Source: Candidatus Hermodarchaeota archaeon (GTDB lineage Archaea; Asgardarchaeota; Heimdallarchaeia; Hodarchaeales; Hodarchaeaceae). Taken from it: DNA of 32,000 bases. Where the stretch lies: NCBI GenBank assembly GCA_048886185.1, contig JBHLKY010000009.1, forward strand, positions 90,001 to 122,000. Reading direction: 5' to 3'. Positions 3 through 20,034 of the stretch are shown here, piece after piece (position 1 is the stretch's first letter; every line of letters begins with the position of its first letter). Below the pieces are notes generated by a model. It had not been told where the DNA came from. It did not search any database and worked only from the letters and a program-made list of their open reading frames with translations. A program made the position numbers and the translations under genes.

Positions 3-3000
3 TTTCCAGAACCAAATTATAATTTCGATGCTGAAGTTCAATGGGTATCTGCTGATTTTACGAAATCAAATGCTACACTGGCTATCTATACTGGTAATTT
101 AGGAATAGAGGCATTAAAAGTTGATGTGTGGAATGGATCATGGAATACGATTATTCCTAACCTGGTAGCCAATTCATGGAATAATATTAGCGTAGTGAAT
201 TATTTAACAACTTCAACTTTCACTATTAGATTCAAAGGTACGAATGAAAGCTCAGATACAACCCAGGATCAATGGAATATTGATGTGACACTACTCCACA
301 CTTGGGATAATGATGAAACTCCTCCAATGATAAATGATTTTTTCGTTGATGATCTAGGTACAGGTATCGGAATTTTTTGGGCGAATGTCACAGATTCTCA
401 ATCTGAGGTTGCAGAAGTAGATCTTGAAGTAAATTCAGTTGAATATTCTATGAACTATAATGGATCTTTATGGGTCAAACAAATCTCAGTCAATTATGGC
501 CAATATTATGAATTCCAAGTCATAAACGCTTCAGACTCAGAAAACTATATTCTCTCTCCCTCCGAAATAAGAAATCACACATTTGACTATGATTCCACAA
601 TTCCAACGGTTGAAAATTGGGAATATTATCCAAATATTGGTATTAATGGAACTTTTAAAGCGAATGTCTCTGATACTTGGGGTGAAATAGACACTGTTCT
701 TGTGAATGTTACAGAGGTTGATGGGATTCCTCGTAATGATTTATGGGCGATAATGGGTTTAACAGCCTCGGGTTACATCAACAATACACTTTTTTTGAAT
801 AAGAATAAAGTATTCAACTTTACTATCTTTGTTAATGATACTTCAGGAAATTCATATACATCATTAAAGCATACTGGAAGTGGTCCCAACCATCCTCCAC
901 AAGCATCTAATCTCTCTCTAACAATCGATCCAAGAACTAATGAATCTTTAATAGCAAATTGGACATTCTCCGATGTAGATGGAGACGATGAGCCTTTGAA
1001 TAGTTGGATTATACGCTGGTATAAATCTGGAGTACTTCAGGACTTATATAATAACCTAAAGATAATTCCCTCTACAGCAACTTCAAAAGGAGAAATATGG
1101 AATTATACACTTCAGGTATCTGATGGAGACAAGTACTCACTTCAATACAATTCACCGCCTACAACTATTATTAACACCCCTCCTGAAGCAATTAATGTAA
1201 CAATTACTTCTAAACCAACAAGTAGTGATGAATTAGTAGCAGGATGGACCGCGAGCGATATAGATGGGGATAATCCAGATAATTATCTACATGTTACCAT
1301 AATCAGATGGTATCTTTGGACTGGAAGTTGGACTGAAATTCCGGGATTAATGAACTCTACTTATGTTACAGCAGGTAATTTAACACGGAGTCAAACTTAT
1401 CGCTTTAAATTAGAGCTTTTTGATGGAGAGGAGTACTCGAAGGTCTATATTTCTCCAAATACGACAATATTAAACTCATTGCCAATTTTAACGGCTACAC
1501 CGACTTTTAATAAAACTACAGATATATTTCCAACAGATAATATAAATATCACATACTCATATAGTGATCCAGATGGCGATCTAGAAGAGACTACTCAACG
1601 AATTGTGTTATGGTATTGGAATGGTGAACTAAATTCGTCAAAAACAAATAATGTGACTTTATTAAGCTCTGAGACATCCTCGGGAGAGACTTGGCAATAT
1701 CGACTACAAGTTTATGACGGATTCAATTATAGCATAATTTACACATCAATTTTAATTTCAATTGGTGCTTATACAAATAATATACCTGAAGTTCAGAATA
1801 TTACATTAACTGGGGGGATAAATACAACCACTGTCGATCTTGTTGCCAGTTATGATTTTTTTGATCTTGATGGGCATCAAGAAGTTGAAAAAGAAATAAT
1901 TTGGTTTATGAATGGTGATATACAACCTGATCACAATAACTCATTGATAATTGGTTCTAGCTTCACAGTTAAAGGTCAAATTTGGAATTTCACCATCAAA
2001 GTTTTTGATGGTTTAAATTGGTCTTCCCAATATGTGTCTAATGAATTGATTATTCAGAATTCTATACCAAAAGTCACTGATATCCAAATTACATCAAATA
2101 CGACAACTATCCATAATTTAACCATTACTTGGGATATTTTTGATGCTGATAATGATGATGAAGATAGCTTTAACCTTAGATGGTATATCAATAATATTTA
2201 CAATAGTTCTTTTGATGATTTATCAGAAATCTCTTCATTAAACACAAAAAAAGGAGAAGAATGGATCTGTTCAATAAGAATATATGATAGCGAAAATTAT
2301 TCAATATGGTATAATTCTTCTACAACTCACATTTTGAATACACCCCCTCTAATCCAAGATTTAGAGCTAACAGGCGGTGAGAATACAAGTCAAAACATTA
2401 TTTTGAATTATGAATTCATTGATGACGATAATGATTCAGAAAACGTTGCAATTAATTGGTTTTACATAGATGGGTCGATTATACCTGGTGAGACTGGTGT
2501 TGAACTCCCCAATACCTATTTTGTTGCAGGAAATATTCTATACGCCCAAATAATTCCGAATGATGGTGAAGTTTCAGGAAATATTTATCGAACCGAATAT
2601 ATCCAGATAGGGAACGCAATTCCCCAAATTATCGGCAGTCCAGAGATTCTGGGCTTCAATGGAAGCTCTATCTATTTTGCTGCGGTACCTCTTTATGTGA
2701 ATTATACAGCAGAAGATTTAGACAGCCCAATTTATATTTATGATATAGAAATCGATGAAAACGGACTTGTATCTAATTCGAATTATAAGTGGTATAAGGA
2801 TGGAGACATTGTGAGTGAATTAACTGGCCCAACTGTACCAACTTATTACTTGTCCAAAGGCGATACTTGGATAGTAAGTGTCCAAATAAAAGATAGGTTC
2901 AATGATGTTAGTTTTTGGAAAAATTCTTCAACAATAGTGATTGGGAATACACCTCCTGAAATTGGATCATTTACTTGGTCAACAAGTTCCCCAACTGTAC

Positions 3001-5471
3001 AAAATGATTTGTCCTTTTCATATACTTATTATGACCTTGATTCTGATTCCGAAAGTAAAAGTCAAGTCATAATTTTTTGGTACAAGAATGGAACAGAAAT
3101 AGCACGGAATCAAAGTACCTTATCTAGTTTCCTATTTAATAGAGGAGATGAGATTAACGTTTCAATTCGTGTATCGGATGGAGAAGACTACAGTCTCTTT
3201 TACAATTCAACAACAGTCATTGTGGTTAATGCAATTCCTGAAGCTTATAACCTTGCTATTACACCGAGTAATCCTTATACTTATGATACATTAGCATTAG
3301 ATTATGATTTCATAGATTATGATAATGACAATGAAAGCTCTGAATGGATTATTCATTGGGTTCGAAATGGGCTTCCTGTTTCTGAATTTGTAAATAAGAC
3401 AAAGGTAAATGCTTCTTATACTTCAGCAGGTGAAGTATGGTTTGCTTACCTAACAGTATTCGACTCTCTAGATTATAGTCAAGAGTATACCGTGCCTTAT
3501 AAGATCATTTTGAATTCAGCCCCCCGAATATTAAGTGTTTCTATCAATGAGAACACTAATACTAGCTACGCAGATTCTAATCTGTTTTTAAATCCGAATG
3601 AAGATATAACATTCTATGATCCCGATCTGGATCCAATATTAGGGTATACAATTACTTGGGTAAGAAATTATACATTTCAGCCAATTTATACAGATCAAAC
3701 TACAATTTTGAATTCTGAACTTAGTAAAGGAGACGTATGGTTTGTTATTGTGAGAGTATTTGACGGAAAAGACTGGTCGAGTAATCAATCGTCTCAAGAA
3801 GTATTTATTATTAATAAATCCCCCGAAGTTCTTGATTTGAGGGTTATAAATACGGCTTTTTCTGATTTCTTACTTGAAAATGAAAACATTGTGTTAGCTT
3901 ATACGTTTCTAGATATAGATTATGACACAGACAGCTCAGTAATTAACTGGTATCGCAATCAAACTTTACTCCCTGAGTATTCTAATTTGACAGTAATCCC
4001 AGCCAGTGCAACCTCTCCGGGAGATATTTGGTATGTTGAAATTCAGCCATATGATGGTGAATCATTTGGTACTCAAATGAACATTTCAATGCATATAGAA
4101 AGCCATCCAATGATTAATGAGATCAGTATTGAAATTAATTTAGATAAAGAAGGTCATTATACTTTCTTGATTAATGTTACAGATCCGAGAAATCCGATTT
4201 CAGAAACCATTTTGATTTTCAGCTTCCAGAATGATACATTAGAACAAACGAAATGGGCTGAATTCAATGGTTCAGAATGGATCTTAGATTATGAACTAGA
4301 AAACTATTCTCTTCTAGGAAATTTAGTAAAGATAGAAGTAATAGCGATTTCAGAAGTCTATTATTCAACTAGGTTTGAAATATCTTCATCGAGTATTTTT
4401 TACTATGAAATGGAAGATAATGTTGCTCCTCGTGTAATAGACGCATTTTTCGAAAAAGATGATGAGTCGAATCCGAGATATTTAACTTTTTATACGCAAA
4501 TTGAAGAATTTGGAATAGGTGTTGATGAAGTCATTCTTTATTACTATTTTCAACCTTACACTGAGGGAAGTGGAGCCAGTAATACTAACTGGCTCAGTTC
4601 TTCAATGATTTTTCAAAATAGAAGTATTATGGATGGTTTAGAGTACTGGGCAGTAGTAGTAGATTTTAATCATAACAACTCTAATTTTGAAATTCTTTAT
4701 TATATTTCAACCTCCGATCTTTCTGGAAACAAAAATGCACTTGCGTTTGATATAAGAGATTTTCCTCAACGTATCAGTGAGAATAGATTTATTTATAAAT
4801 CTCCTGGATTACCAGAATGGCTAGTAATTCTCTCATTTATTTTGGTGTTCTGCATTTTAATTGGATCTGTTGCCTACATTAAGTTCATCCGTAAGCCTGA
4901 ACTCGTTGGTTTTGATAAAAAAGTAGTAATGAAAAATGTTACCAAAATAAGTCATGAAGAAGTAATAGCTTCTATGGATCTTCATACACTTGGAATTGTT
5001 CTTTCTTATTTTGACCAGAGATCGGGACCCCTTCCCTTAATTGTAATTCCAGATCTATTACAAGATAATATAGCACCTTTAATAGCACTTTCAGATCGTT
5101 CATTCAACAGTTGTGGTTTTGCCAGTGATTTCACCTCTAAAACCTTTTCAAGTTTTGATTACTCTTTGGAAAGCCTTATACGCGTAAATTCAATGTCCTA
5201 TGGTTATTCAATAGAAAATCCAGAAGCAAGAGGGGGAGCTGAGCATTTTACTGTGAATATTCTCGTTGTTCCTGAAATATTTCCATTAATCAATCAATTC
5301 AAGGAAGAACTACAGGATTCTGTTCATGACATCCACATGTTGATGACAATTGAACCTGAAAATAAGAGTGGAATCTTATCATCGGTCGTTAATCTTAGGG
5401 AAAAAGTCTCATATATTGTTTTATCCTATAAGGACATTTATCAAACTACCGAGTTGATCGAGGAAGGATGA
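3..5471 (+). CDS. Giant single-pass cell-surface glycoprotein (5'-partial): beta-rich extracellular domains, 11 Ig/cadherin-like repeats, TM helix, cytoplasmic longin/uDENN-like domain
   Basis: The frame is open from base 3 (FPEPNYNFDAEVQW...), so the GTG at 126 is internal and the true start lies upstream of the window. Many N-x-S/T sequons, N-x-x-P...DxDGD...W repeats, hydrophobic LVILSFILVFCILIGSVAYI followed by KFIRK, then a ~190-aa tail. Confidence 0.9.
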   Translation, partial: FPEPNYNFDAEVQWVSADFTKSNATLAIYTGNLGIEALKVDVWNGSWNTIIPNLVANSWNNISVVNYLTTSTFTIRFKGTNESSDTTQDQWNIDVTLLHTWDNDETPPMINDFFVDDLGTGIGIFWANVTDSQSEVAEVDLEVNSVEYSMNYNGSLWVKQISVNYGQYYEFQVINASDSENYILSPSEIRNHTFDYDSTIPTVENWEYYPNIGINGTFKANVSDTWGEIDTVLVNVTEVDGIPRNDLWAIMGLTASGYINNTLFLNKNKVFNFTIFVNDTSGNSYTSLKHTGSGPNHPPQASNLSLTIDPRTNESLIANWTFSDVDGDDEPLNSWIIRWYKSGVLQDLYNNLKIIPSTATSKGEIWNYTLQVSDGDKYSLQYNSPPTTIINTPPEAINVTITSKPTSSDELVAGWTASDIDGDNPDNYLHVTIIRWYLWTGSWTEIPGLMNSTYVTAGNLTRSQTYRFKLELFDGEEYSKVYISPNTTILNSLPILTATPTFNKTTDIFPTDNINITYSYSDPDGDLEETTQRIVLWYWNGELNSSKTNNVTLLSSETSSGETWQYRLQVYDGFNYSIIYTSILISIGAYTNNIPEVQNITLTGGINTTTVDLVASYDFFDLDGHQEVEKEIIWFMNGDIQPDHNNSLIIGSSFTVKGQIWNFTIKVFDGLNWSSQYVSNELIIQNSIPKVTDIQITSNTTTIHNLTITWDIFDADNDDEDSFNLRWYINNIYNSSFDDLSEISSLNTKKGEEWICSIRIYDSENYSIWYNSSTTHILNTPPLIQDLELTGGENTSQNIILNYEFIDDDNDSENVAINWFYIDGSIIPGETGVELPNTYFVAGNILYAQIIPNDGEVSGNIYRTEYIQIGNAIPQIIGSPEILGFNGSSIYFAAVPLYVNYTAEDLDSPIYIYDIEIDENGLVSNSNYKWYKDGDIVSELTGPTVPTYYLSKGDTWIVSVQIKDRFNDVSFWKNSSTIVIGNTPPEIGSFTWSTSSPTVQNDLSFSYTYYDLDSDSESKSQVIIFWYKNGTEIARNQSTLSSFLFNRGDEINVSIRVSDGEDYSLFYNSTTVIVVNAIPEAYNLAITPSNPYTYDTLALDYDFIDYDNDNESSEWIIHWVRNGLPVSEFVNKTKVNASYTSAGEVWFAYLTVFDSLDYSQEYTVPYKIILNSAPRILSVSINENTNTSYADSNLFLNPNEDITFYDPDLDPILGYTITWVRNYTFQPIYTDQTTILNSELSKGDVWFVIVRVFDGKDWSSNQSSQEVFIINKSPEVLDLRVINTAFSDFLLENENIVLAYTFLDIDYDTDSSVINWYRNQTLLPEYSNLTVIPASATSPGDIWYVEIQPYDGESFGTQMNISMHIESHPMINEISIEINLDKEGHYTFLINVTDPRNPISETILIFSFQNDTLEQTKWAEFNGSEWILDYELENYSLLGNLVKIEVIAISEVYYSTRFEISSSSIFYYEMEDNVAPRVIDAFFEKDDESNPRYLTFYTQIEEFGIGVDEVILYYYFQPYTEGSGASNTNWLSSSMIFQNRSIMDGLEYWAVVVDFNHNNSNFEILYYISTSDLSGNKNALAFDIRDFPQRISENRFIYKSPGLPEWLVILSFILVFCILIGSVAYIKFIRKPELVGFDKKVVMKNVTKISHEEVIASMDLHTLGIVLSYFDQRSGPLPLIVIPDLLQDNIAPLIALSDRSFNSCGFASDFTSKTFSSFDYSLESLIRVNSMSYGYSIENPEARGGAEHFTVNILVVPEIFPLINQFKEELQDSVHDIHMLMTIEPENKSGILSSVVNLREKVSYIVLSYKDIYQTTELIEEG
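888..4097 (+). repeat. 11 tandem ~92-111 aa Ig/cadherin-like protein repeats
   Basis: Units start NHPP, NTPP, NSLP, NNIP, NSIP, NTPP, NAIP, NTPP, NAIP, NSAP, NKSP. Each has a D-x-D-(G/N/S)-D-like motif, an I-x-W-Y/F strand, a (K/S)G(E/D)xW motif and a (V/I)xDG..(Y/W)S hairpin. Confidence 0.85.
4821..4880 (+). other. Transmembrane helix of the giant surface protein
   Basis: 20 hydrophobic residues LVILSFILVFCILIGSVAYI followed by basic KFIRK (positive-inside rule). Confidence 0.85.
4989..5468 (+). other. Cytoplasmic longin/uDENN-like domain
   Basis: LGIVLSYFDQRSGPLPLIVIP resembles the uDENN first beta-hairpin (hhhxxFDxxxGPxxxxxxP). ENPEARGGAEHFTVNILV resembles the DxxARG(F)xRxxxhxh motif of folliculin/SMCR8 uDENN. 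Recognised by eye only. Confidence 0.6.
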
Positions 5472-5828: not shown

Positions 5829-6938
5829 ATGAATATCTTGAAGAATCACGATCTTTGGAAGAATGAACATTTTGGGACTGAACCTCCCTGTATAACATAT
5901 GAACTGAAACCATTGCTTACTCCTCAAGGGGAGATAATCGAAGAGCTTTATTCTGCTTGGATTATACTTAATAATCCTGCCCAATTAAATTCTTATAACA
6001 CAGAAATGGTTAAAGGGGTCATTGCAGGATTTTCTCGAGCGTCAATGGATCGAAGTGTAGTTGCTGTTGTTTTTACTGGTGCTGGGGATCGAGCTTTTTG
6101 TAGTGGTGGAAATACAAAAGAATACGCGGAATATTACTCTAGTAAACCAAATGAGTATGGATTGTATATGGATCTCTTTAATGCAATGGTTGATGCGATA
6201 CTAAACTGTAAAAAACCAGTTATCTGTAGAGCTAATGGTATGAGAATTGCAGGAGGACAGGAGATAGGAATGGCTGCTGATCTGACAATTTCTGCGGACA
6301 CTGCGATTTTTGGTCAAGCTGGACCACGTCACGGTTCTGCTCCAGATGGTGGGTCTACTGATTTTCTTCCATGGTTTTTAGGTATTGAAGATGCAATGTA
6401 TAACTGTGTTTCCTGTGAAATGTGGAGTGCGTACAAGATGAAAAGGCTTGGTTTGATCACAAAAGTTGTACCAGTACTTAAAAACAATAATGGTGATTTT
6501 ATCCGAAATCCTACAGTCTATACTGATAAATACGTCAAGAATGGCGATATTGTTTATGGAGAATTCTTAACTGGCCAAGAGTTTAAAGAAGGAAGAGAAG
6601 TTATGAAAAACTGTAAAATCGATTTAACTCCTTTAGATAAAGCTGTGAATGATGTAATTTGGAATTTTACAAATTTATTTCCAGGGTGCTTAATGAAGTC
6701 TATTGATGGCATTCGAATGAAAAAGAAATTCTTTTGGGATCAAACAAAGCTTGCAAATCGTCATTGGTTATCAGTTAACATGATGACCGAAGCTTTATTA
6801 GGATTTAGGGCTTTTAATGAAAGAAAACAAACTGGAAAAGATGTGATTGACTTCATAAAATACAGAAAACTTATAGCTAAAGCACACCCATTTAATCAAG
6901 ATCTTGTTGATGCTGTTCTCCCTAAAACCAAGGAATGA
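5829..6938 (+). CDS. oah: 6-oxocyclohex-1-ene-1-carbonyl-CoA hydrolase (ring-opening, benzoyl-CoA pathway; crotonase fold)
   Basis: Long (369 aa) crotonase with Oah/BamA-typical segments: LYSAWIILNNPAQLNSY, AFCSGGNTKEYAEYY, GMRIAGGQEIGMAAD, QAGPRHGSAPDGGSTDFLP, CEMWSAYK, NMMTEA, GFRAFN. Confidence 0.88.
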   Translation: MNILKNHDLWKNEHFGTEPPCITYELKPLLTPQGEIIEELYSAWIILNNPAQLNSYNTEMVKGVIAGFSRASMDRSVVAVVFTGAGDRAFCSGGNTKEYAEYYSSKPNEYGLYMDLFNAMVDAILNCKKPVICRANGMRIAGGQEIGMAADLTISADTAIFGQAGPRHGSAPDGGSTDFLPWFLGIEDAMYNCVSCEMWSAYKMKRLGLITKVVPVLKNNNGDFIRNPTVYTDKYVKNGDIVYGEFLTGQEFKEGREVMKNCKIDLTPLDKAVNDVIWNFTNLFPGCLMKSIDGIRMKKKFFWDQTKLANRHWLSVNMMTEALLGFRAFNERKQTGKDVIDFIKYRKLIAKAHPFNQDLVDAVLPKTKE

Positions 6939-6944
6939 TGTGAA

Positions 6945-8153
6945 ATGAGATTTCAAAATACATACATACCTTATGGTTGTTACTGGTCTACGCCCTTCGT
7001 TCGTTGGCAAGGTAGCTTCTCCAGCTTAAATGCTGTTCCTTTTGCAGCTGAAATGACAATCAAGGCTTTAAAAGCACGTAATATTTCTCCTGGTTCATTT
7101 GATTCACTTTATCTTGGAATTACAATACCACAGAAGCATAGTTTTTATGGTCAAACGTGGTTTGCAGGTTTGATCGGAGCTCCCGAGATTACTGGACCTA
7201 TGATTGCCCAAGCTTGTGCAACTTCTGCTCGAATCATCGGTAATGCTTCTTCCGAGATCGAAGCTAGTAGTCCAAGGCATCGATCTATCCTAGCTGTGAC
7301 TTGTGATCGCACTAGTAATGGGCCTCACATACTATATCCCAATCCTCTTGCCCCAGGTGGTAAAGCTGACATAGAAAACTGGGTCTGGGATAACTTTGGT
7401 TATGATCCATATGCCAGAAATCCAATGATACAAACAGCAGAAAATGTTGCTAAAGAAGCAGGAATCACTAGGGAAGAGCAGGAAGAAATCGTTCTATTAC
7501 GCTATAATCAGTATAACGATGCCTTAGACAACAACTCATCTTTCCTTCGTAAATTTATGATTTCACCTATTGAAGTAAAATCCGGGAAGAAGACTATTGC
7601 AACTGTTGAGGGTGATGAAGGAGTTTTCCCTACTACTGCAGAAGGTCTTGCAAAGTTAGTACCTGTTCTCAAGGAGGGAACAGTAACGTATGGAGCTCAA
7701 ACACACCCATCTGACGGTAATGCTGGTATGATCTTAACATCAAGAGAGAAAGCTCAAAAAATCAGTCTTAACAAAGATTTTGAGATCCGAATCTTATCTT
7801 TTGGCCAAGCTCGAAGTAAAAAAGGATTTATGCCTATGGCACCAGTCCCCGCAGCTAGAAATGCCTTGGAATCGGCACAGATCTCAATTGAAGACATTAG
7901 CTGCGTTAAAATGCACAATCCATTTGCTGTGAATGATGTATACTTCAGTCAAGAAATGGGAATAGCTAAAGAAGATATTAACAATTTTGGTTCTTCTCTT
8001 GTTTGGGGTCACCCTCAAGCACCAACTGGCATGCGTCTGATTATTGAACTTATTGAAGAGCTTGCTTTAAAGAACGGAGGCTATGGGCTCTTTACAGGGT
8101 GTTCTGCTGGTGATTCCGCAGCCTCAATGGTTATTGAAGTCAGTAAGGTTTAA
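6945..8153 (+). CDS. Thiolase (acetyl-CoA C-acyltransferase), probably 3-oxoacyl/3-oxopimeloyl-CoA type
   Basis: QACATS (nucleophilic Cys), HNPF in place of the NEAF motif, VWGHPQAPTG, C-terminal GCSAG. Begins 6 nt after the oah stop. Confidence 0.88.
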   Translation: MRFQNTYIPYGCYWSTPFVRWQGSFSSLNAVPFAAEMTIKALKARNISPGSFDSLYLGITIPQKHSFYGQTWFAGLIGAPEITGPMIAQACATSARIIGNASSEIEASSPRHRSILAVTCDRTSNGPHILYPNPLAPGGKADIENWVWDNFGYDPYARNPMIQTAENVAKEAGITREEQEEIVLLRYNQYNDALDNNSSFLRKFMISPIEVKSGKKTIATVEGDEGVFPTTAEGLAKLVPVLKEGTVTYGAQTHPSDGNAGMILTSREKAQKISLNKDFEIRILSFGQARSKKGFMPMAPVPAARNALESAQISIEDISCVKMHNPFAVNDVYFSQEMGIAKEDINNFGSSLVWGHPQAPTGMRLIIELIEELALKNGGYGLFTGCSAGDSAASMVIEVSKV

Positions 8154-8209
8154 GTTAATCGAATAAATTTAAACAGGCCTTAGATCTGTCCAAATGGTTT
8201 TAATAAGAG

Positions 8210-9103
8210 TTACCTGAAAGAACGTGGTTCAGGTGGTTGTTTAGAGTAATCATAGAACCCTTTACCAGTTTTTCTACCAAAATGGCCCGCACGAACCATT
8301 TTTCGTAAAAGAGTTGGTGCTCTGTATTTTGAATCCTGAAACTCTCCATACATGTAATCAGCAATGAAAAGTGCTGTATCAAGTCCAACAAAATCCAACA
8401 ATGTTAAAGGCCCCATTGGATGGTTCAAACCTAAAGTTATTGCTTTATCAAGATCTTCAACAGTAGCTACACCTTCTTGAAGAGTGAAAATTGCTTCTAA
8501 TAAAAATGGAAGAAGAAGACGATTAACTGCGAAACCAGGAGCTTCATTAACGAGAACTGTTTCCTTACCAAGCTTTTTTGAAAGCTCATCAGTAAAAAGA
8601 TATGTCTCGTCGGAAGTATCATATCCTTTGATGATTTCAACTAAACGCATAACAGGGACTGGATTAAAGAAATGCATCCCTATGAACTTTTCAGGACGTT
8701 TTGTTGCAGAAGCCATATCTGTAATTGATATTGATGATGTATTTGAAGCAAAAATACACTCTGGTTTACAAATCTCGTCCAATTCGGCGAAAACTTCCCT
8801 TTTTAGATCTCTATTCTCGATAATTGCTTCAATAACAACATCAGCGTTATATGCAGCAGCTTTCAAGTCAGTAGTGCCTTTGATTCGATTAACAATCTGG
8901 TTCATCTCCTCTTGGGTCATCTTTCCTTTATTAACTCCTCGAGATAAATTCTTTTTAATATTATTCATTCCATTCTCTACAAAACGATCTTCAATGTCTC
9001 TTAATGCAACTTCAAAACCAGCTTGGGCACAAACCTGTGCAATACCGTTACCCATCAGGCCTGCACCCATTACACAAATTTTCTTTACATCTTCAACTTT
9101 CAT
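8210..9103 (-). CDS. hbd: 3-hydroxybutyryl/3-hydroxyacyl-CoA dehydrogenase
   Basis: GAGLMGNGIA Rossmann motif, VIEAIIEN, ASNTSS, GMHFFNP, GFAVNR, HPMGP, GRKTGKGFYDY. Confidence 0.92.
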   Translation of the reverse strand: MKVEDVKKICVMGAGLMGNGIAQVCAQAGFEVALRDIEDRFVENGMNNIKKNLSRGVNKGKMTQEEMNQIVNRIKGTTDLKAAAYNADVVIEAIIENRDLKREVFAELDEICKPECIFASNTSSISITDMASATKRPEKFIGMHFFNPVPVMRLVEIIKGYDTSDETYLFTDELSKKLGKETVLVNEAPGFAVNRLLLPFLLEAIFTLQEGVATVEDLDKAITLGLNHPMGPLTLLDFVGLDTALFIADYMYGEFQDSKYRAPTLLRKMVRAGHFGRKTGKGFYDYSKQPPEPRSFR

Positions 9104-9133
9104 ATTGAATGAACTTCCTAAATATGATATATA

Positions 9134-10717
9134 TCAAGAATTCTGTTCTTCATTATAACGTTCTCGGAGTATCCGATGAATGATTTTTCCTGATCCTGTT
9201 CTAGGTATATCGTCGTAATCAATGAATATAATTCTCTTAGGGACTTTAAATCTTGGTAGTTTATCTCGACAGTATTCTCTGATTTCATTTGCTAACCTAT
9301 CTGATGGTTCGCTACCCAAGGTTAAAGCACAGATTGCCGTGACTGCTTCACCCCATTTAGGATGTAATAATCCCACTACAGCGCACTCTAAAACATCTTT
9401 GTGGCTCGTGATGATCTTTTCGACTTCTGATGGGAATACATGTTCACCTCCTGTGATGATCATATTCGCCTTTCTGTCAACCAAGTAGTAATAGCTGTCC
9501 TCATCTTGTCTCGCCATGTCACCAGCGCTAAAGAAGTCACCATCCATACTCGCTGCTGTTTTCTCTGCCAGTTTGTAATAATGAGTCATTTGCATAGGAC
9601 TACGAGAGAATAGTTCACCTATTTCACCAATTGGTACTGGTTTCCTAGTATCAGGATCAAGTATTCGAAGTTGATCTGAACCAATACATTCTTGACCAAT
9701 GGATCCAACTTTCTTGAACTGATCTTCAGGTCTTAGAATAGTTACCAGACCAGCTTCAGTTGAACCATATGCTTCATAAAGCCGAACTCCCTTGAACAAT
9801 TTCATCACACCATATTTCATCTCTTTAGTGGCTGGCGCAGAGGAGGTGAGGAGAGTCTTTACTGAGCTGAGATCATATTTTTCTTTAATTTCATCTGGAA
9901 GGCTTAGAATTAGGTTATAATGAGTTGGAATTAAGGAAGTAAAGGTTATTTTCTCATGATCGAAGATCTGAAGAACCTCTTCTGGATTAAAACCATATTC
10001 CAGATGAATATAGACAGGAGCACCGATGTAAGTGAAAACGAAAGAGTAAAAAGTGCTGTTCACATGTGATAATGGCATAAGGATTAAGCCATAATCTTGG
10101 GGAGTGAAAGAAAATTCAGCTGCATTAATTAGAAAGAAAGAAATATATGAACGATGAGAACGAACCACCCCTTTGGGTCTACCTGTTGTTCCTGAAGTAT
10201 AAAGCAAAATCCATGGATCCTCTGGATCTACCTCAATTTTTGGATAATTTTCTTCCCCATCTTTGATAATATTTTCATAGTAACTCCAATTTTCTGCAAT
10301 TGGTATGTCATCTAGGCAAATATGATCAAGAGAGTCCAATCTGAAATCTACTACTAGATCCCAGTTTTTAATGGTAATCTCATAGTATCTAGACTCTACA
10401 ATAACCATTTTGCATTCAGCATTATTTACAATCCAGTAAAGATCTTTAGGAAGAAGACGAAAATTCAATGGAACAATAATAAATCCTGCTTTTGCAGCAG
10501 CTCCATATATTTCCATAAATTCAACTCTGTTATTCATAAGAACAGCAATTTTATCGCCTTTTCTTAGACCTCTTTTGAGTAAACCATTTGCAAGCTTATT
10601 TGTCCTTTCATCAAACTCTTTATTAGTTAGAGAATGATTTATATCTTTAAATGCAAGTTTATTGGGATATTTGAAAGCATTGATACGTATAATTTCACCT
10701 AAATGTAGCCAGCTCAA
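9134..10717 (-). CDS. AMP-forming acyl-CoA synthetase (long-chain fatty acid or aryl/CoA ligase family)
   Basis: YTSGTTGRPKG, YGSTEAG, GDMARQD, IITGGEHVFPSEVE, PRTGSGKI. The likely start is the TTG at 10717 (SD-like GAGG upstream), not the ORF-track start at 10837. Substrate unknown. Confidence 0.9.
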   Translation of the reverse strand: MSWLHLGEIIRINAFKYPNKLAFKDINHSLTNKEFDERTNKLANGLLKRGLRKGDKIAVLMNNRVEFMEIYGAAAKAGFIIVPLNFRLLPKDLYWIVNNAECKMVIVESRYYEITIKNWDLVVDFRLDSLDHICLDDIPIAENWSYYENIIKDGEENYPKIEVDPEDPWILLYTSGTTGRPKGVVRSHRSYISFFLINAAEFSFTPQDYGLILMPLSHVNSTFYSFVFTYIGAPVYIHLEYGFNPEEVLQIFDHEKITFTSLIPTHYNLILSLPDEIKEKYDLSSVKTLLTSSAPATKEMKYGVMKLFKGVRLYEAYGSTEAGLVTILRPEDQFKKVGSIGQECIGSDQLRILDPDTRKPVPIGEIGELFSRSPMQMTHYYKLAEKTAASMDGDFFSAGDMARQDEDSYYYLVDRKANMIITGGEHVFPSEVEKIITSHKDVLECAVVGLLHPKWGEAVTAICALTLGSEPSDRLANEIREYCRDKLPRFKVPKRIIFIDYDDIPRTGSGKIIHRILRERYNEEQNS

Positions 10718-10996
10718 CGTAAATCCAACCTCTTGAAATATAATTGTATTTAATGACCTTTTAACTGATTTGACGTCAATTTTGAATTGTTTGGGAAGTG
10801 AATTGGAATGAAATCGGAAGCTTTCTGATTTTAACAAAAGAAAAAATGTTGAATTAAGTATTTTATTAATCGATATAAAATTCTTAAAGACTGCTTTTTG
10901 GGCACTAATATTAATTCCCTTTGTAATCTTTTCAATTGTTACTTTATAGTTTTTAAATAACTAAACAATGATTTTCTCTCCTTAAAATATATATTA

Positions 10997-11042: not shown

Positions 11043-12968
11043 ATGGTTGAAGGCATAATGGCGAGAATTGAGGATATTTTTGAGAATGTGAGTGATAGAA
11101 CTCTGGTTTTGCTAGGAAATGAAGCTATAGCCCGAGGAATTATAGAAGCTGGTGTGGCTGGTGTCTTCACTTATCCTGGAACTCCCTCATCTGAAATCCC
11201 AAACACTCTATATGCAGCACAGCCCATATTAAAGGATATAGGATATGATCTATATCTTGAGTGGAGTGCAAACGAAGCTGTTGCTCTTGAAAGTGCCTAT
11301 GGTTTCTCATTACTGGGTCATCGGGTAATTTTTGTCTGTAAACATGTTGGATTAAATGTTGCTGCTGATCCTTTTATGACTCTTGTCAATGCAGGTGTTA
11401 TAGGTGGATTGGTTCTTATTGTAGCTGAAGATCCTCATATGCATTCCTCACAGAATGAGCAGGACAATCGTTGGTATACAAAGATCTCAAATGCTCCCAT
11501 GTTTGAACCAAGTGATGCTAGAGAAGCAAAAGCAATGTTAAAAGATGCATTTCGTGTTAGTGAAAAGTATCAAGTTCCTGTTATTTTAAGAACTGTAACT
11601 AGAATTTCGCACTCACGTACAGATGTACACCTCGAACCCATCACTTTTCCAGAGTTTCGTCAAGCTATCTCTCTCGAAATAGATCCAAGACGGTTTGTAT
11701 GTGTACCTAGTAATGCACGTCAAAATAAACAACGGATACTAGGGATGATTAACGACATTTCAAGTTATTTGGCCGATTCCCCTTGGAACCGAGCGGAAGA
11801 GGGAGATGAGGAAACATTTGCTTTCATTACATGCGGATCAGCATATAATTACTTAAAAGAAGTCTTGATTAAACTTAGAACAAGTTACCCAATATTAAAA
11901 ATAGGTCTCTCACATCCTTTCCCAGAGTATCAAGTTACTCAATTCCTAAAGAAATATTCCTCTTCCAAAATCATAGTTGTTGAGGAGGCAGATGATGTTT
12001 TAGAGACTTTTGTAAAAAAACTAGCATTTGAGATTGGATTTGAAAATAAGATAATTGGAAGGAGAGAAGGAATCACTCCTTCTTATGGAGAACTAACAAT
12101 ACGTAAGGTTTGGAATGGTTTAACCAAAACTATGAATCTTGATTTATATCCTACAGAGATCCCTCAAGATCGATCTGATTTGACATTTGCACGGCCTCCA
12201 GTTTTATGTCCTGGATGTCCACATCGAGCGACATTTTATGCACTGAATAAAGCTATCCCTAGAAGACACCGTATAATATCTACTGATATAGGTTGTTATA
12301 CTTTAGGTGTTGCTCCTCCACTTTCTGCTGGTAACGTGACCATCTGTATGGGATCTTCTTTAGGAATTGGTTCTGGACTGGCCCATAGTCCAGGTTTAAA
12401 AGATCCAGTTGTATCAATTATTGGTGACTCAACTTTTTGGCATACTGGATTACCTGGCCTTGTAAACGCTGTTTACAATAAAAGCAATCTTTTATTGTTG
12501 GTTGTGGACAATTCAGCTACAGCTATGACTGGTTTTCAACCAAATCCTTCATCTTTTACTTCCCATTCTTCTGTTGAACCCCTATCCATTGAGGAAGCGG
12601 TTCGAGGCATTGGTGTTAAACATGTAGTAACAATTGATGCTTACAACCCCAAAGTATCAATTGAAGTTATTAAAGAAGCCATTAAGCACGAAGGAGTCTC
12701 AGTAATCGTATCCAAGGGAGAATGTGTAATTCAATCCACGCGGAGGGAGGGATTACCAAAAACCAGTTATTATATAGAAGCAGATCGTTGTGTTGGCTGC
12801 TATGCATGTGTTAACATGATTGCATGTCCAGCTATCATATGGTCAGATCGTATAACAACTGAAGAAGGTAAACCCATTCCAATGATCGATCAATCTTTAT
12901 GCACTCGTTGTGGGTTATGTGCTTCAGTATGCCCTTATGGTGTGATAGTAGAAAAGTCTGAGATTTAA
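11043..12968 (+). CDS. iorA: Indolepyruvate (arylpyruvate):ferredoxin oxidoreductase alpha subunit
   Basis: LLGNEAIARG, YPGTPSSEI, KHVGLNVAAD, SSQNEQD, LCPGCPHR, DIGCYTLG, TPP-binding GDSTFWHTG, C-terminal 2x[4Fe-4S] (CVGCYAC...CP; CTRCGLCASVCP). Alternative start ATG at 11058. Confidence 0.95.
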   Translation: MVEGIMARIEDIFENVSDRTLVLLGNEAIARGIIEAGVAGVFTYPGTPSSEIPNTLYAAQPILKDIGYDLYLEWSANEAVALESAYGFSLLGHRVIFVCKHVGLNVAADPFMTLVNAGVIGGLVLIVAEDPHMHSSQNEQDNRWYTKISNAPMFEPSDAREAKAMLKDAFRVSEKYQVPVILRTVTRISHSRTDVHLEPITFPEFRQAISLEIDPRRFVCVPSNARQNKQRILGMINDISSYLADSPWNRAEEGDEETFAFITCGSAYNYLKEVLIKLRTSYPILKIGLSHPFPEYQVTQFLKKYSSSKIIVVEEADDVLETFVKKLAFEIGFENKIIGRREGITPSYGELTIRKVWNGLTKTMNLDLYPTEIPQDRSDLTFARPPVLCPGCPHRATFYALNKAIPRRHRIISTDIGCYTLGVAPPLSAGNVTICMGSSLGIGSGLAHSPGLKDPVVSIIGDSTFWHTGLPGLVNAVYNKSNLLLLVVDNSATAMTGFQPNPSSFTSHSSVEPLSIEEAVRGIGVKHVVTIDAYNPKVSIEVIKEAIKHEGVSVIVSKGECVIQSTRREGLPKTSYYIEADRCVGCYACVNMIACPAIIWSDRITTEEGKPIPMIDQSLCTRCGLCASVCPYGVIVEKSEI

Positions 12969-12994
12969 TACAAATGATCTGAAAGGAGTTTAAA

Positions 12995-13456
12995 ATGAAA
13001 CAATTAAATCCGAAATGGTGTGAATGGATTCTTCCTATAATAAACTCGAATCCATTTTTCTCTTTTTTTGGTATCAAGCTTAACGAATTTAGATATGGAG
13101 AGTCGTTCTTAGAACTTGATATAAAGGAAAATCACCTCCAATTACATGGGGTTATTCATGGTGGTGTTTCTGCTGCATTGATTGATGCTGCAGGAACTTT
13201 AGCTGTAGTGACTCAGATAGAGGGACTTAATAGTGCTACCACAATCGATATGAAGGTAAATTATTTATCAAGTGCCAAAGAAGGTAAAATTCTAGCATAT
13301 GGCCATTGTATTAAGCTTGGGAACACGATTGGTGTATCAGAAGCAACAATCAGGGATGAAGAAGAGAAAATCATCGCTCATGGATTAGTAACAGTGATGA
13401 TAAGGCCTCCTATTGATTTCCCAGGGGTGGATCAAATACCTCCAAAATTTTTGTGA
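12995..13456 (+). CDS. PaaI-family hotdog-fold acyl-CoA thioesterase
   Basis: HLQLHGVIHGGVSAALIDAAG motif, TIDMKVNYL, AAAGGAG SD upstream. Confidence 0.88.
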   Translation: MKQLNPKWCEWILPIINSNPFFSFFGIKLNEFRYGESFLELDIKENHLQLHGVIHGGVSAALIDAAGTLAVVTQIEGLNSATTIDMKVNYLSSAKEGKILAYGHCIKLGNTIGVSEATIRDEEEKIIAHGLVTVMIRPPIDFPGVDQIPPKFL

Positions 13457-13487
13457 TTTAGATGCTATTGAAGTTATAGGTGATAAT

Positions 13488-14084
13488 ATGGAATATCAAA
13501 TTTTCCTTGCTGGCGTGGGAGGACAGGGAATACTTTCTGTAACTGATATAATATGTAAATCTGCTGTTGATATGGGTTTTAGGGTTCATGGTTCTGAAAC
13601 ACATGGTATGTCTCAGCGAGGTGGGAGTGTTTTCTCAAATGTTCGTTTTGGGGATGTATTTTCACCACTGATCATGGAACGTGATTCTGATGTCCTTCTT
13701 GCTTTTGAACCAACAGAAGCTTTACGATATGCTCAATTTGTAAAACCAAAAGGGATTTGTCTTGTAAATACACATCCCATTCCTTCTCCGAGTTTTACAT
13801 TAACTAAAAGTAATTATCCTGAAATTGAATCCATTATAACAGCTTTAAAGGCTTATAGTCCTCACATTGTTCCAATTAATGCTACAAAACTAGCAACTGA
13901 TTTAGGAATGGCAATTGTTCAAAATATTGTTATGTTAGGAGCTCTATCAGCAGTAGAAGGGCTCCCTCTTTCAAAAAGTTCTCTCTTAGTGGCATTAAAA
14001 AAGCAATTTAAGGCTAAACATTTTGATATCAACCTTGAGGCATTTCAGGCAGGGCATCAAGCCTATGTGGATAGCCTTTGTTGA
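13488..14084 (+). CDS. iorB: Indolepyruvate:ferredoxin oxidoreductase beta subunit
   Basis: AGVGGQGIL, SETHGMSQRGGSV, FEPTEALR, NIVMLGAL. True start ATG 13488 with AGGTGA SD; the ORF-track start 13413 overlaps the thioesterase gene. Confidence 0.93.
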   Translation: MEYQIFLAGVGGQGILSVTDIICKSAVDMGFRVHGSETHGMSQRGGSVFSNVRFGDVFSPLIMERDSDVLLAFEPTEALRYAQFVKPKGICLVNTHPIPSPSFTLTKSNYPEIESIITALKAYSPHIVPINATKLATDLGMAIVQNIVMLGALSAVEGLPLSKSSLLVALKKQFKAKHFDINLEAFQAGHQAYVDSLC

Positions 14085-14131: not shown

Positions 14132-15712
14132 ATGATTTGTGTTACACCCTCAGAAGGGTTTTATGAGTTGATTAAGAATATAATAGGACGAAATCTTCCT
14201 GAAAGGCTTTTTGGTATAGAAATTATTCCTTATCAGGGTATTCATGCCTCAAGAACAAAAGGAAGGAGCCGAATTGGTACGAAATATCAACCATATGTTG
14301 TCACTAGAGACACAAAACGATTCTATGATGATGTTGACCACCTTTTAGGGTATCATTTTCTTGAGCTATTTGACGGTATGACAATCTCTTTTCATCATAT
14401 CCTGAGAAATGGAGATGGTGTCTTATTACCTATCATTGATTCTTTCGCGTCCTATGGAATTAGAAATATCACATTAGCTTCTACAGCTTTATTCCCTGTT
14501 CATTCACCTCTTTTGGAGCACATAGAGACTGGTGTTATCGGACGAATTGAAGGTAGTATGAATGGTCCAATTGGTCAGGCTATATCTAGGGGAGATGTGA
14601 ATATTCCCACTATTCTTAGATCACATGGGGGCCGCGCGCGAGCAGTTCAAGAAGGGAGTTTACATATTGATGTAGCTTTCATTGCTGCTTCTGCAGCTGA
14701 TTTTCTCGGAAATTTGACTGGTATTGAAGGGAGAAATGCTTTTGGTAGTCTTGGATATCCCCTTGAAACAGATTCACTCTACGCAGATGTAGTCATAGGA
14801 GTTACTGACACTATTCTTGATTATCCCCTAGAAAATGTAAGTATCCCTTCTAGTCGGGTTGATGCGATTCTTGAAGTTGATTCAATTGGTGATCCTTCAA
14901 AAATAGCATCAGGAAGTTTGAATAGAAAATTATCGCCCGATCGGCTTGAAATTGCTGAAAATGCAGTTCAAGTGATGTATCATTCAGGATTTCTACAAGC
15001 TGGATTTAATTGGCAGGCTGGCGCAGGGGGCATGTCCTTGGCAACCACTAAATATTTGAAAGATCTGATGGTTGATAAAAATCTAGAAGGTAGTTATATC
15101 TTTGGTGGAATTGCAAAGAATTCTGTCGAATTATTGGAAGCAGGCCTTTTCAGGATAATTTATGATGCCCAATCATTCGATTCTGAAGCAATTGACTCTT
15201 TAAAAAATAACTCTAATCATGTTGAAGTTTCAATAGATCATGCTTATAATCCTTTCAATAAAGGTTGTATTGCCAACAATACTGATTTCTCTGCTTTAGG
15301 GGCCACTGAAGTTGATGTTAATTTTAATATCAATGTCAATACTTTTAGTGATGGTACTCTAAACTCTGGAATAGGTGGACATCAGGATGCAGCTCGCGCG
15401 AAAATTAGTATGATTCTATTGCCATTGGTACGCAAAGTACCTTGTATCATTGATAATGTTGTCACAGTTTCTAGTCCAGGGGATTGTATTGATGTTATTG
15501 TGACAGATGGTGGAATAGCCATCAATCCTAAACGAGTAAAGTTGAAAAAACGTTTGGAAAAAGCTGGATTAAATATTCAATCCATAGATGATCTAAAAGA
15601 AGAAGCCATAAACTTGGCAGATCCAATAAAAGCCAATCTGACCGATAAAATTACTACATTAGTGGAATATCGGGATGGTACTCATTTGGATGTTATTTAT
15701 CAAATAGAATAG
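14132..15712 (+). CDS. citF: Citrate lyase alpha subunit / citrate CoA-transferase
   Basis: GMTISFHHILRNGD, LRSHGGRARA, HIDVAFIAA, GSLGY, QAGAGG, ATEVDVNFNINV, GIGGHQDAA, SPGDCIDVIVTDGGIAINP, VEYRDGT. The start may be the TTG at 14168. Confidence 0.88.
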   Translation: MICVTPSEGFYELIKNIIGRNLPERLFGIEIIPYQGIHASRTKGRSRIGTKYQPYVVTRDTKRFYDDVDHLLGYHFLELFDGMTISFHHILRNGDGVLLPIIDSFASYGIRNITLASTALFPVHSPLLEHIETGVIGRIEGSMNGPIGQAISRGDVNIPTILRSHGGRARAVQEGSLHIDVAFIAASAADFLGNLTGIEGRNAFGSLGYPLETDSLYADVVIGVTDTILDYPLENVSIPSSRVDAILEVDSIGDPSKIASGSLNRKLSPDRLEIAENAVQVMYHSGFLQAGFNWQAGAGGMSLATTKYLKDLMVDKNLEGSYIFGGIAKNSVELLEAGLFRIIYDAQSFDSEAIDSLKNNSNHVEVSIDHAYNPFNKGCIANNTDFSALGATEVDVNFNINVNTFSDGTLNSGIGGHQDAARAKISMILLPLVRKVPCIIDNVVTVSSPGDCIDVIVTDGGIAINPKRVKLKKRLEKAGLNIQSIDDLKEEAINLADPIKANLTDKITTLVEYRDGTHLDVIYQIE

Positions 15713-15730
15713 AATTTGATCTTCGTTTCC

Positions 15731-17872: not shown

Positions 17873-19155
17873 ATGGATGCCTCCTTCTTGAATTCAAAAC
17901 CTCTTCTGATTCCTTCCTTAATTACATCAGCCATGATCTTTTCATTCCCAACGACCATATCCAATAATTTTAAAGGCTCTGGGGTTTCGATTCTTGCTTT
18001 TTCAAGGTAGCTTTTCGCTGATGGTAGGTCAGTTCCTACCATTCTGCCATAAATTGGAATTATGCGTTCTTTATTACGATATCGTTCTCTTAAAGCCTGA
18101 ATTAATCCTCTAATGAATACATCACAGCTTGAGATGCCCCCAAATCTCGATGTGATGATGATATCAGTTAGGGGGTAATCCATTAAGAGATGAAACATTT
18201 GAGCTACTCGATTTTGTGGGGGTCCTCCTCCACTATCCATAAAATTAATGGGAACCACTTTACCATCAAAGAACTTATTACCAATATTCACAACTTCATC
18301 TATAGAAAATATCCCGTAACCTGCTCCCCCTGGAACAAGACCCACATGTAATACTTTTTCATCCTTGATTACATCATTGGAAAGTAGGTCTACATATGGA
18401 AATCCTTGGCTATAGGCTTTTTCTTCATTAGATGTTGGCTCAGCTATGTCATGTCGTCTGCTGGTTATTCCTAAAGTCTCCAAGAGCTTACTTTGCCTAT
18501 ATAAACCGTTATCATCGAGAACGATTTTTGCATCAGCAGCAATAACATTATCAGGCGTAATTATTACTGGATTGATTTCACAAAGCTTTGCATCAATATC
18601 CTGATACATTCGATAAGTTTTGTTAATAATTGAGGCAAGAGTCTCCTTCTGCTTTTTAGATAATTGGAGATCTTGATCTAATATTTCTGTAACTTCTCCT
18701 ATAATATTAGTTTGTAAAGCTCTATCATTGTTAATTATTTCCCTCTTTATAATCGTCTCAGGTCGATTTCGTGCAATTTCCTCAATATCTACTCCTCCAG
18801 AAGCGCTAACAACCAGAACATTATTGAAAGTATTTGGATCAGTTGTTACTCCTATATAACAACCCCCACGCTCTTCAACTGCTTCTTCGAAAAAAACTCT
18901 TTCCACTGGATGATCCTTGATTCGCAAATTCAAAAGCTCTGATGTTATATTTTTGGCTTCATTTAATGTATTAACTTTCTTTATTCCTCCTGCTTTACCT
19001 CGTCCCCCGATTAAAACAACAGCTTTTGCCATCGCAGGAAATTTCAGATCGAGTTTTTCGACTTCATCGACAGAATGAACGACACCAAATTGTTTTGGGA
19101 TTGGAATACCATTCTGTTCGAAAACTCTTTTCGATTCATGTTCATAGAGTCTCAA
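17869..19155 (-). CDS. ATP-grasp CoA-ligase beta subunit (SucC/citryl-CoA synthetase/AclB-like)
   Basis: MRLYEHESK, KAVVLIGGRGKAGGIK, SASGGVDIEEIA, EINP, DAKIVLDDN, NFMDSGGG, FGGISSCD, RMVGT. TTG start. Its stop overlaps the alpha-gene ATG (ATGA). Confidence 0.88.
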   Translation of the reverse strand: MRLYEHESKRVFEQNGIPIPKQFGVVHSVDEVEKLDLKFPAMAKAVVLIGGRGKAGGIKKVNTLNEAKNITSELLNLRIKDHPVERVFFEEAVEERGGCYIGVTTDPNTFNNVLVVSASGGVDIEEIARNRPETIIKREIINNDRALQTNIIGEVTEILDQDLQLSKKQKETLASIINKTYRMYQDIDAKLCEINPVIITPDNVIAADAKIVLDDNGLYRQSKLLETLGITSRRHDIAEPTSNEEKAYSQGFPYVDLLSNDVIKDEKVLHVGLVPGGAGYGIFSIDEVVNIGNKFFDGKVVPINFMDSGGGPPQNRVAQMFHLLMDYPLTDIIITSRFGGISSCDVFIRGLIQALRERYRNKERIIPIYGRMVGTDLPSAKSYLEKARIETPEPLKLLDMVVGNEKIMADVIKEGIRRGFEFKKEASI

Positions 19156-19419: not shown

Positions 19420-20034
19420 TTATTTCCCTAGGAATAAGCGTTGTTCCCATTCATCAATTGCTTCGTGGATATCCTCTAAATATTTCACTTTCTTAGCACG
19501 AACATCACGATTAAAACTAGCAATGTCGTAAAGTAGTCGTGAGGACTGACTAGTTTCTGCAAGAGCATCTCTAAATTGATCGATAAAATCAGGAATTCTT
19601 TCAGGAGACTTTTCCCAAAAATTCGATATATTTTCTCTTAAAGATTGAATCATAATACGTAGATCACCTGCTTCAGAGACAGTGATTAATGTGCTTGCCC
19701 TTTCTTGAATTCTGCTTTTTATTTGTTGAATAAAGCGTTTCGCAGCCTCACTACGATTTTTCACTATTCCTGCAGATATCCAATTTTCAGTAACCACTTC
19801 AATAAGTTGAAAGACGGCTGCGTCTTCATTTCCTTGTATTTCAGGGAGATAATGAAATAATCCTAATTTAGTAATGACAAAACGGAAATTTGAGCTAAGA
19901 TATTGACGTTCACGAGGAGCAAGCTCAATTCGTTTCAGCAAATCGCGAAAGTCCTTTGCACTCTTTCTTCCAGATTGAAAATCGATCGTTAAATGTGGTT
20001 TAATTTTTTCGCAAACCTGATCGACTACTCTCAT
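19420..20034 (-). CDS. Hypothetical, predicted helical protein (204 aa)
   Basis: Long ORF with AAGGTG SD and ATG, no competing ORF. No family recognised. Confidence 0.7.
   Translation of the reverse strand: MRVVDQVCEKIKPHLTIDFQSGRKSAKDFRDLLKRIELAPRERQYLSSNFRFVITKLGLFHYLPEIQGNEDAAVFQLIEVVTENWISAGIVKNRSEAAKRFIQQIKSRIQERASTLITVSEAGDLRIMIQSLRENISNFWEKSPERIPDFIDQFRDALAETSQSSRLLYDIASFNRDVRAKKVKYLEDIHEAIDEWEQRLFLGK

Follow-up and report, generated by a model that had tools for sequence, protein, structure and literature searches.

The 32,000-nucleotide stretch of DNA analysed here (the window; C9:90001-122000 in genome G000, Candidatus Hermodarchaeota archaeon) opens within the gene of a giant protein, P0002, which is predicted to be a single-pass type I, receptor-like surface protein with a cytoplasmic C-terminus. 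Structural modelling places this C-terminal tail as a longin domain nearest to those of the FLCN (folliculin), NPRL2, SMCR8, C9orf72 and Lst4 group, and the gene of a Rag-like GTPase of 300 residues (Rag300) lies directly beside the giant gene, just before the window. The reading favoured here, at a probability of about 0.55, is that the Rag-like GTPase encoded next door is a partner to which the longin tail binds and whose activity it regulates, probably in the capacity of a GTPase-activating protein (GAP) acting through Arg115 of the tail (R115). The tail would hold Rag300, or the pair of Rag300 and a second Rag-domain protein of the locus (Rag564), at the inner face of the membrane, where R115 would stimulate GTP hydrolysis in the manner of FLCN, NPRL2 and SMCR8. 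Whether the Rag switch is locally in its GTP or GDP state would, on this reading, respond to contact or clustering of the ectodomain.

The longin tail of a giant surface protein

The full-length product of the giant gene comprises 2,122 residues, the N-terminal portion of which is encoded upstream of the window. The gene is taken to start at a TTG codon at C9:89103, 898 nucleotides before window base 1, which is preceded by a Shine-Dalgarno-like GGTGA box within the gap that separates it from the Rag300 gene; an alternative in-frame ATG lies 27 nucleotides further upstream (C9:89076). Only two segments of the whole protein pass the hydropathy threshold (Kyte-Doolittle mean of 1.6 over 19 residues), namely a signal-like N-terminal segment at about residues 9-33, which begins MKSLLRIYHRIRS and continues in a hydrophobic run, and the transmembrane helix near the C-terminus. 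The ectodomain contains 68 N-x-S/T sequons compared to 31.8 +/- 5.1 in composition-preserving shuffles (maximum 50 in 2,000 shuffles), a density of 3.6 per 100 residues, where the genome as a whole has 0.8 and the tail 1.0. This pattern is consistent with an N-glycosylated exterior and a cytoplasmic tail, though it falls short of proof. Because there are only these two hydrophobic segments, basic residues follow the helix and sequons are enriched on its N-terminal side alone, the tail is predicted to be cytoplasmic. A preliminary description of this DNA had likewise proposed one transmembrane helix, and the hydropathy scan bears it out (nucleotides 4809-4886); a tail outside the cell would, according to that description, have refuted its proposal, and the predicted topology puts the tail within.

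The tail was modelled with AlphaFold2 (AF2) from an alignment of 80 tail sequences (A1), which also provided the conservation counts given below. The model built with A1 is of high confidence (predicted local distance difference test, pLDDT, 92.4; predicted TM-score, pTM, 0.88), and a model from a single tail sequence was unusable (pLDDT 36). Two short helices lead into a strand-strand-helix-strand-strand-strand arrangement, with longin-core strands at tail residues 34-43, 47-54, 86-94, 98-110 and 118-127 and a helix at 62-76, and three C-terminal helices complete the domain. In an exhaustive VIA-align search, the top eight rows are all GAP-type longin entries (Z 9.0-13.2), the best of which is the longin of a Lokiarchaeal Roadblock-Longin protein (8yqg; Z 13.2, root-mean-square deviation [rmsd] 3.0 A over 141 residues, 15% identity), an entry for which a literature search found no paper. 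GATOR1 (8fw5; 10.8), C9orf72-SMCR8 (7o2w; 10.8), Lst4 (4zy8; 10.4) and SEA (8adl; 10.3) occupy ranks 2-5, followed by the FLCN complex (6nzd; 10.2), 6lt0 (9.6) and 6ulg (9.0) at ranks 6-8. Other longins score lower (DENND1A, Z 8.7; AP sigma, TRAPP, VAMP7 and Ykt6, 6.8-8.5), and roadblock entries fall well under the longins at Z of about 6-6.6. Roadblock domains begin with a helix, and two additional helices do precede the longin core of the tail. A fold search of the ESM Atlas returned SMCR8, uDENN domains of the FLCN/SMCR8 type, Avl9, a Heimdallarchaeota cluster bearing PF11704 and clusters bearing NPR2, and the best TM-scores in Foldseek are those of longins. The longin assignment of the preliminary description, made from the letters of the sequence, is thereby upheld by the AF2 model and structure search it had suggested, with the closest matches among the longins of GAP complexes.

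A PAS or GAF identity for the tail was considered and rejected: LOV/PAS entries lead the Foldseek list by E-value, but at a TM-score of about 0.3 and rmsd of 13-36 A, and GAF/PAS-like ligand-binding folds reach only Z <=6.4 in VIA-align. When the PDB was searched by sequence, neither the family profile nor the tail of a paralogue matched anything above chance level; the best matches, to a designed helical protein (E 0.009) and exotoxin A (about 0.07), cover short segments, and reverse gyrase is also among the matches.

Two motifs had been singled out in the preliminary description as longin hallmarks, and the model, profile alignment and literature (PMC12290439) indicate that the GP motif, and probably the loop arginine as well, is placed as in the FLCN/NPRL2/SMCR8 group. 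The first, FDQRSGPLP, falls inside the interval 4989-5051 given for it, and the second is the P-E-A-R-G-G loop. In the AF2 model, G47-P48 is located between strands 34-43 and 47-54, and R115 is presented by the loop between strands 4 and 5. Across the 80 homologous tails G47 is kept in 80, P48 in 77, P50 in 80, R115 in 78, E119 in 76 and R171 in 80, a degree of conservation that excludes chance as the origin of either motif. The conservation of R171, located in the last helix of the tail, exceeds that of the candidate arginine finger R115. The arginine fingers of the eukaryotic proteins are R164 of FLCN, which reaches the gamma-phosphate in PDB 8dhb, R78 of NPRL2 and R147 of SMCR8. The GAP longins FLCN, NPRL2, SMCR8 and C9orf72 are reported to be marked by a GP motif where the second strand begins and by an arginine finger next to it, and the same pair marks one class of Asgard longins (PMC12290439).

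The folliculin family PF11704 is the sole Pfam family to recur among the 80 tails, weakly and in 23 of them (best E 1.9e-4); two paralogues score 18.7-19.2 bits against a gathering cut-off of 23.3. One soluble protein of the window genome, encoded at C6:93398-94711, passes this cut-off, and comparison of A1 with it by hhalign gives a probability of 88% (E 3e-6), pairing FDQRSGP of the tail family with FDEEHGP and PEARGG with PEARGR. It is on such profile evidence, together with the structural evidence above, that the tail is considered homologous to the folliculin group.

Rag-like GTPases beside the tail

The preliminary description envisaged a pathway contained in one protein, from adhesion receptor to GTPase; the likely GTPase partner is instead the product of a separate gene next door, lying before the window. 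The Rag300 gene is on the same strand as the giant gene and ends 51 nucleotides before its TTG start, or 24 before the alternative ATG. Its GxxxxGKS P-loop, DxxGQ and Rag-typical HKxD motifs are invariant in 57 homologues, and a C-terminal domain of roughly 100 residues follows the Gtr1_RagA domain. The relatives of Rag300 are labelled Hodarchaeales, with one from Heimdallarchaeota LC_3. Divergent upstream of Rag300 is the gene of Rag564 (P0268), which is 42-43% identical over its length to Rag-domain proteins of 740 residues (C10) and 661 residues (C32), all three belonging to a 'long Rag' family. Rag300 and Rag564 may form a Rag heterodimer. Residues 200-564 of Rag564 show a weak resemblance to GatB/YqeY-type helical domains in a language-model look-up, at 0.85 and thus below the 0.9 level adopted for leads. 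Alignment of the tail profile with Rag300, Rag564 and the 740-residue Rag protein by hhalign found no tail-like longin in them; after the C10 paralogue there is a gene with a weak longin match.

Linkage of the two kinds of gene was counted from the positions of tail matches relative to PF04670 and Rag300 matches. Of the 35 genes in the Rag300 subfamily, 19 share a contig with a tail match no more than about 12 kb away, and many of the others are only a few kb from the end of their contig. In the six fully listed genomes, a Rag-domain match is found at <=10 kb from 9 of the 33 tails, where about 1.3 would be expected from the density of Rag genes, these related genomes being non-independent. 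The grouping of a giant gene with both a Rag300-type and a long Rag gene is also repeated in relatives. The adjacency of giant longin proteins and Rag genes thus appears, from gene positions, to recur in several arrangements and in two archaeal families (Table 1), and this variety argues for selection on the linkage.

A co-fold of the tail (A1) with Rag300 (its own alignment, A2), GTP and Mg gave an ipSAE of 0.56 (runs 0.55, 0.56 and 0.59) against 0.00 for the best control, with contacts 100% consistent between runs and a partner pLDDT of >=83. When the score was calibrated, 58 of 80 solved complexes and 2 of 110 mismatched pairs passed the mark, with 7 of the 80 solved complexes and both of the passing mismatches at 0.60 or under; these counts are approximate, given the use of own alignments and of added ligands. 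The pass may also reflect the model's memory of solved FLCN-Rag and GATOR1-Rag complexes. Co-folding with a GTPase of the same genome, a check put forward in the preliminary description, thus lends weak support, adding modestly to a likelihood that gene linkage had increased beforehand.

Table 1. Positions of the giant gene's features, of its Rag neighbours and of Rag genes beside related tails (window coordinates unless a contig or locus is named).
Feature	Position	Strand	Remarks
Coding sequence, C-terminal 1,822 of 2,122 codons of giant surface protein	3..5471	+	stop TGA 5469-5471; frame open at window 5' end
Distal non-repeat ectodomain	3..896	+	continues upstream to signal-like N-terminus; no Pfam family
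Eleven tandem ~93-residue repeats, residues 599-1666	897..4100	+	hidden Markov model iterated on the protein itself
Membrane-proximal ectodomain	4101..4808	+	similarity reaches here in repeat-sharing paralogues C10, C1, C37, C18, C74
Predicted single transmembrane helix, residues 1903-1928	4809..4886	+	hydropathy; basic stretch IRKPELVGFDKK directly after
Predicted cytoplasmic tail, 194 residues, 1929-2122	4887..5468	+	AF2 model, VIA-align, Atlas fold matches
F-D-Q-x-x-G-P-x-P motif (FDQRSGPLP)	5010..5036	+	strand 1/strand 2 turn; G47 (G1975 of full protein) codon 5025-5027, P48 (P1976) codon 5028-5030
P-E-A-R-G-G loop, strands 4/5, NPEARGGAEHFTVNIL	5217..5264	+	AGA codon 5229-5231 for R115, numbered R2043 in the full protein, a candidate arginine finger
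Invariant arginine R171, last tail helix	5397..5399	+	80/80 homologues
Rag300, 300-residue Gtr1/RagA-type GTPase	C9:88149-89051 (L025:9150-10052)	+	PF04670 E 2e-38, residues 9-201
Rag564, 564-residue Rag-domain protein, divergent upstream	C9:85875-87569 (L025:6876-8570)	-	N-terminal Gtr1_RagA E 1e-29
Rag gene directly upstream, order as in window	G190:C28, G238:C112		Rag 82% identical in G190:C28
Rag about 100 nucleotides downstream of tail	G102:C1, G280:C4		
Convergent long Rag-domain gene followed by Rag300-type gene	G102:C4, G280:C4		both genes seen
Same convergent arrangement	G107:C48, G119:C49, G181:C78, G136:C30, G238:C28		inferred from ~2.6-kb spacing
Rag divergent upstream	G262:C350, G208:C28, G190:C188		
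Family f3, Rag-type gene ~2.5 kb past tail	G142, G163, G202, G205, G097		
Family f3, 501-residue Rag-domain gene between tail and Rag-type gene	G026		

Ectodomain, relatives and surrounding genes

The extracellular part of the protein spans about 1,870 residues, and the very large repeat ectodomain of the preliminary description takes the form of 11 tandem repeats of ~93 residues, recognized by the self-iterated model at domain E-values between 1e-24 and 4e-38. An acidic D-x-D-G-D cluster and the motifs W-Y/F-x-N-G and G-D/E-x-W are present in each repeat. No Ig-like, PKD, cadherin or other family was found in the ectodomain by Pfam. A language-model look-up of the repeats in the Atlas gave similarities of 0.90-0.94, with low recognition, to Ig_2/Big_9/PKD clusters in which 10-54% of members have one of these domains, and the repeats may be Ig/PKD-like beta-sandwiches, a suggestion to be taken as a lead only. 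The protein may be labelled a putative adhesin, and presumably a glycosylated one.

A HMMER scan of 1.84 billion representatives returned 146 relatives of the tail in host proteins of up to 5,809 residues, and the tail domain is located at the extreme C-terminus in essentially all of them, the few exceptions being short and probably fragmentary. The closest public tail (87% identity) belongs to 'Candidatus Heimdallarchaeota archaeon bin272', and others are found in metagenome-assembled genomes of Hodarchaeota. The window genome itself contains nine tails, each ending a giant frame. Five paralogues (C10, C1, C37, C18 and C74) share the repeat type at 30-36% identity, that on C74 being 40% identical with an overlap limited to the membrane-proximal region and tail; among these repeat-sharing paralogues the tails are 41-52% identical. 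Two strong-matching copies on C13 share the tail and little or nothing of the ectodomain, and a third, weak C13 copy gave no BLAST match. The C13 copies thus supply what the preliminary description had proposed to look for, paralogous transmembrane and longin tails on different ectodomains. At G000:C13:154-14398, three co-oriented giant genes stand in tandem, each with a tail of the family, the third of which is weakly similar (E 5e-10), and in the sister genomes G062 and G102 the open frames that carry the tail reach about 10,400 residues.

The distribution of strong matches in giant frames was surveyed in 301 genomes of the phylum. Such tails are present in 19 of 20 genomes of the genus, at 1-11 copies each, and in the families f3 (20/29) and f7 (9/11) of the same class, along with one genome of family f2. 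The giant form thus belongs mainly to the class of the window organism (families f1, f2, f3 and f7); beyond these are one f4 genome and two matches in G025 (family f22), which is outside the class. Other Asgard classes gave only weak profile matches, in open frames of 247-482 residues, which would fit known soluble longins.

The genes of Rag300, Rag564 and the giant protein interrupt a cluster of the beta-oxidation type. Upstream (L025:2371-6849) are genes for an acyl-CoA dehydrogenase, the beta and alpha subunits of an electron-transfer flavoprotein and a second acyl-CoA dehydrogenase, and downstream (window 5829-10837) those for an enoyl-CoA hydratase, a thiolase, a 3-hydroxyacyl-CoA dehydrogenase and an AMP-forming acyl-CoA ligase. 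Next, at 11043-14084, comes a pair of genes for a 2-oxoacid (indolepyruvate/pyruvate-type):ferredoxin oxidoreductase, comprised of a thiamine pyrophosphate and 4Fe-4S subunit and a POR gamma-like subunit, with a 4HBT thioesterase gene between them. The region 14132-19155 contains a CitF-like gene (+) and then two minus-strand genes with ATP-grasp/CoA-ligase and citrate-synthase domains; as judged from their domains, these make up an ATP-citrate-lyase-like or citryl-CoA synthetase/lyase set. Four frames have no Pfam family at E <=0.001, namely 23363-25375 (+; 670 residues), 19420-20034 (-; 204), 20225-20563 (+; 112) and 21675-22223 (-; 182). Further on, at 27111-30688, a replication clamp set stands in a row, with a PCNA-like gene (299 residues) and the small and large subunits of replication factor C.

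Known longin systems and the role of the tail

The eukaryotic FLCN-FNIP (Lst7-Lst4), GATOR1 NPRL2-NPRL3 and C9orf72-SMCR8 complexes have a fold in common with the tail (Z 9-11 over 127-153 residues). Further points of likeness are GP where strand 1 turns into strand 2, A-R-G in the loop that joins strands 4 and 5 and, as the likely client of the tail to judge from gene linkage, a Rag-family GTPase. Whereas these GAP longins are soluble, bear a DENN or other C-terminal module and function as heterodimers recruited to lysosomes, the longin of the window protein forms the C-terminus of a giant that crosses the membrane once, and nothing follows it. The soluble FLCN/SMCR8-type and NPRL2-like longins of Asgard archaea share the same motif pair (PMC12290439; Liu et al. 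preprint 10.1101/2020.10.19.343400), but these are cytosolic, or fused to DENN or two-component domains, unlike the giant ectodomain, transmembrane helix and longin combined here. The 8yqg protein is a dimeric roadblock-longin architecture with, according to its entry title, no membrane segment. Like the window pair, the Ragulator-Rag assembly (LAMTOR) is a membrane-tethered platform of the roadblock/longin superfamily with Rag GTPases, although Ragulator is lipid-anchored, built of roadblock dimers and devoid of an ectodomain.

The preliminary description knew of no characterized example of this architecture. The longin class itself has been described, with soluble FLCN/NPRL2-type members in Asgard archaea (Liu et al. 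preprint 10.1101/2020.10.19.343400; PMC12290439) and NPRL2-like members that are fused to two-component domains. For the membrane-anchored form, a literature search found neither a giant-receptor Asgard longin nor its linkage to Rag genes, an absence that is not proof of novelty.

Several observations weigh against regulation of Rag300 by the tail as a GAP. Pfam assigned no family to the window protein or its tail, with PF11704 not scored. No DENN module lies C-terminal to the longin, contrary to the uDENN/longin module of DENN-family proteins to which the preliminary description had likened it, and the protein ends in helices ~60 residues past the core. No obvious second longin partner of the FNIP, NPRL3 or C9orf72 kind is present at the window locus, and eukaryotic GAP complexes are heterodimers. 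Longin and roadblock platforms are, moreover, more often guanine nucleotide exchange factors (GEFs) or scaffolds than GAPs. No Rag gene lies within 10 kb of 7 of the 9 tails in the window genome, of about two thirds of the paralogues in five other genomes, or near the orthologue in CP070760 (G241). The co-fold returned no interface, and its score lies in the weak band.

The main rival, judged rather unlikely here, is a role in which the tail is a Ragulator-like anchor or scaffold. It would bring Rag-like GTPases that presumably lack a lipid anchor to places marked by the surface protein, by way of the putative roadblock domains at their C-termini and with no catalysis. Longin and roadblock domains do pair as platforms (PMC10933270), the 8yqg longin is a dimer, and the small GTPases of Lokiarchaeon MK-D1, the organism to which this report pertains rather than to the Rags discussed here, are without a terminal-Cys lipidation signal (PMC10933270). 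Gene linkage and a weak co-fold pass would, furthermore, fit binding of any kind. What such an anchor leaves unexplained is the retention in 77-80 of 80 tails of the GP motif and loop arginine, the very marks of GAP longins (PMC12290439).

It is improbable that the tail serves the surface protein itself, in dimerization, sorting to protrusions or attachment to a cytoplasmic lattice or cytoskeleton, and lacks a dedicated GTPase partner, with adjacency to Rag genes reflecting no more than a shared regulon. Most paralogues have no Rag neighbour, the distant member P0075 has no GTPase gene nearby (a small Ras-like gene lies upstream of another distant member), and SNARE longins and AP sigma act without GTPases; yet at least seven paralogue lineages or arrangements in two families keep an adjacent Rag, where roughly 4% would be expected for a 10-kb neighbourhood, and the structural neighbours of the tail are the GTPase-regulating longins rather than those of SNARE and AP proteins. 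Least probable is that the tail functions as a GEF for a Rag-like or other small GTPase in the manner of the DENN, TRAPP and Mon1-Ccz1 longins, for although DENND1A (Z 8.7), TRAPP and Mon1-Ccz1 longins are among the structural matches, they rank under every GAP-type longin, and the GP motif is reported to be absent from DENND and TRAPP longins (PMC12290439).

Regulation of the adjacent Rag-like GTPase by the tail, the reading favoured here, may be carried one step further, to outside-in receptors in which engagement of the ectodomain clusters the tails and thereby switches off a Rag300/Rag564 heterodimer at the plasma membrane. This extension is doubtful at present; if true, the nutrient switch that Rag and FLCN/GATOR1 form at the lysosome would have an archaeal forerunner here, the extracellular face being topologically equal to the lumen of the lysosome.

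Asgard genomes contain dozens of small GTPases and of longin and roadblock proteins. The layout of these genomes seldom reveals which regulator pairs with which GTPase (Tran et al.; PMC10933270), and whether the partners of GP-motif Asgard longins are Rag or Arf-related GTPases was left open in 2025 (Traffic; PMC12290439). The window locus offers a concrete candidate for such a pair in the tail of the giant protein and the 300-residue Rag protein, within Hodarchaeales, the order described as nearest to eukaryotes (Eme et al. 2023, as cited in PMC12290439). Should the tail prove to be a Rag GAP, the Rag-longin switch would predate eukaryotes and would have been wired first to the cell surface, not to an organelle.

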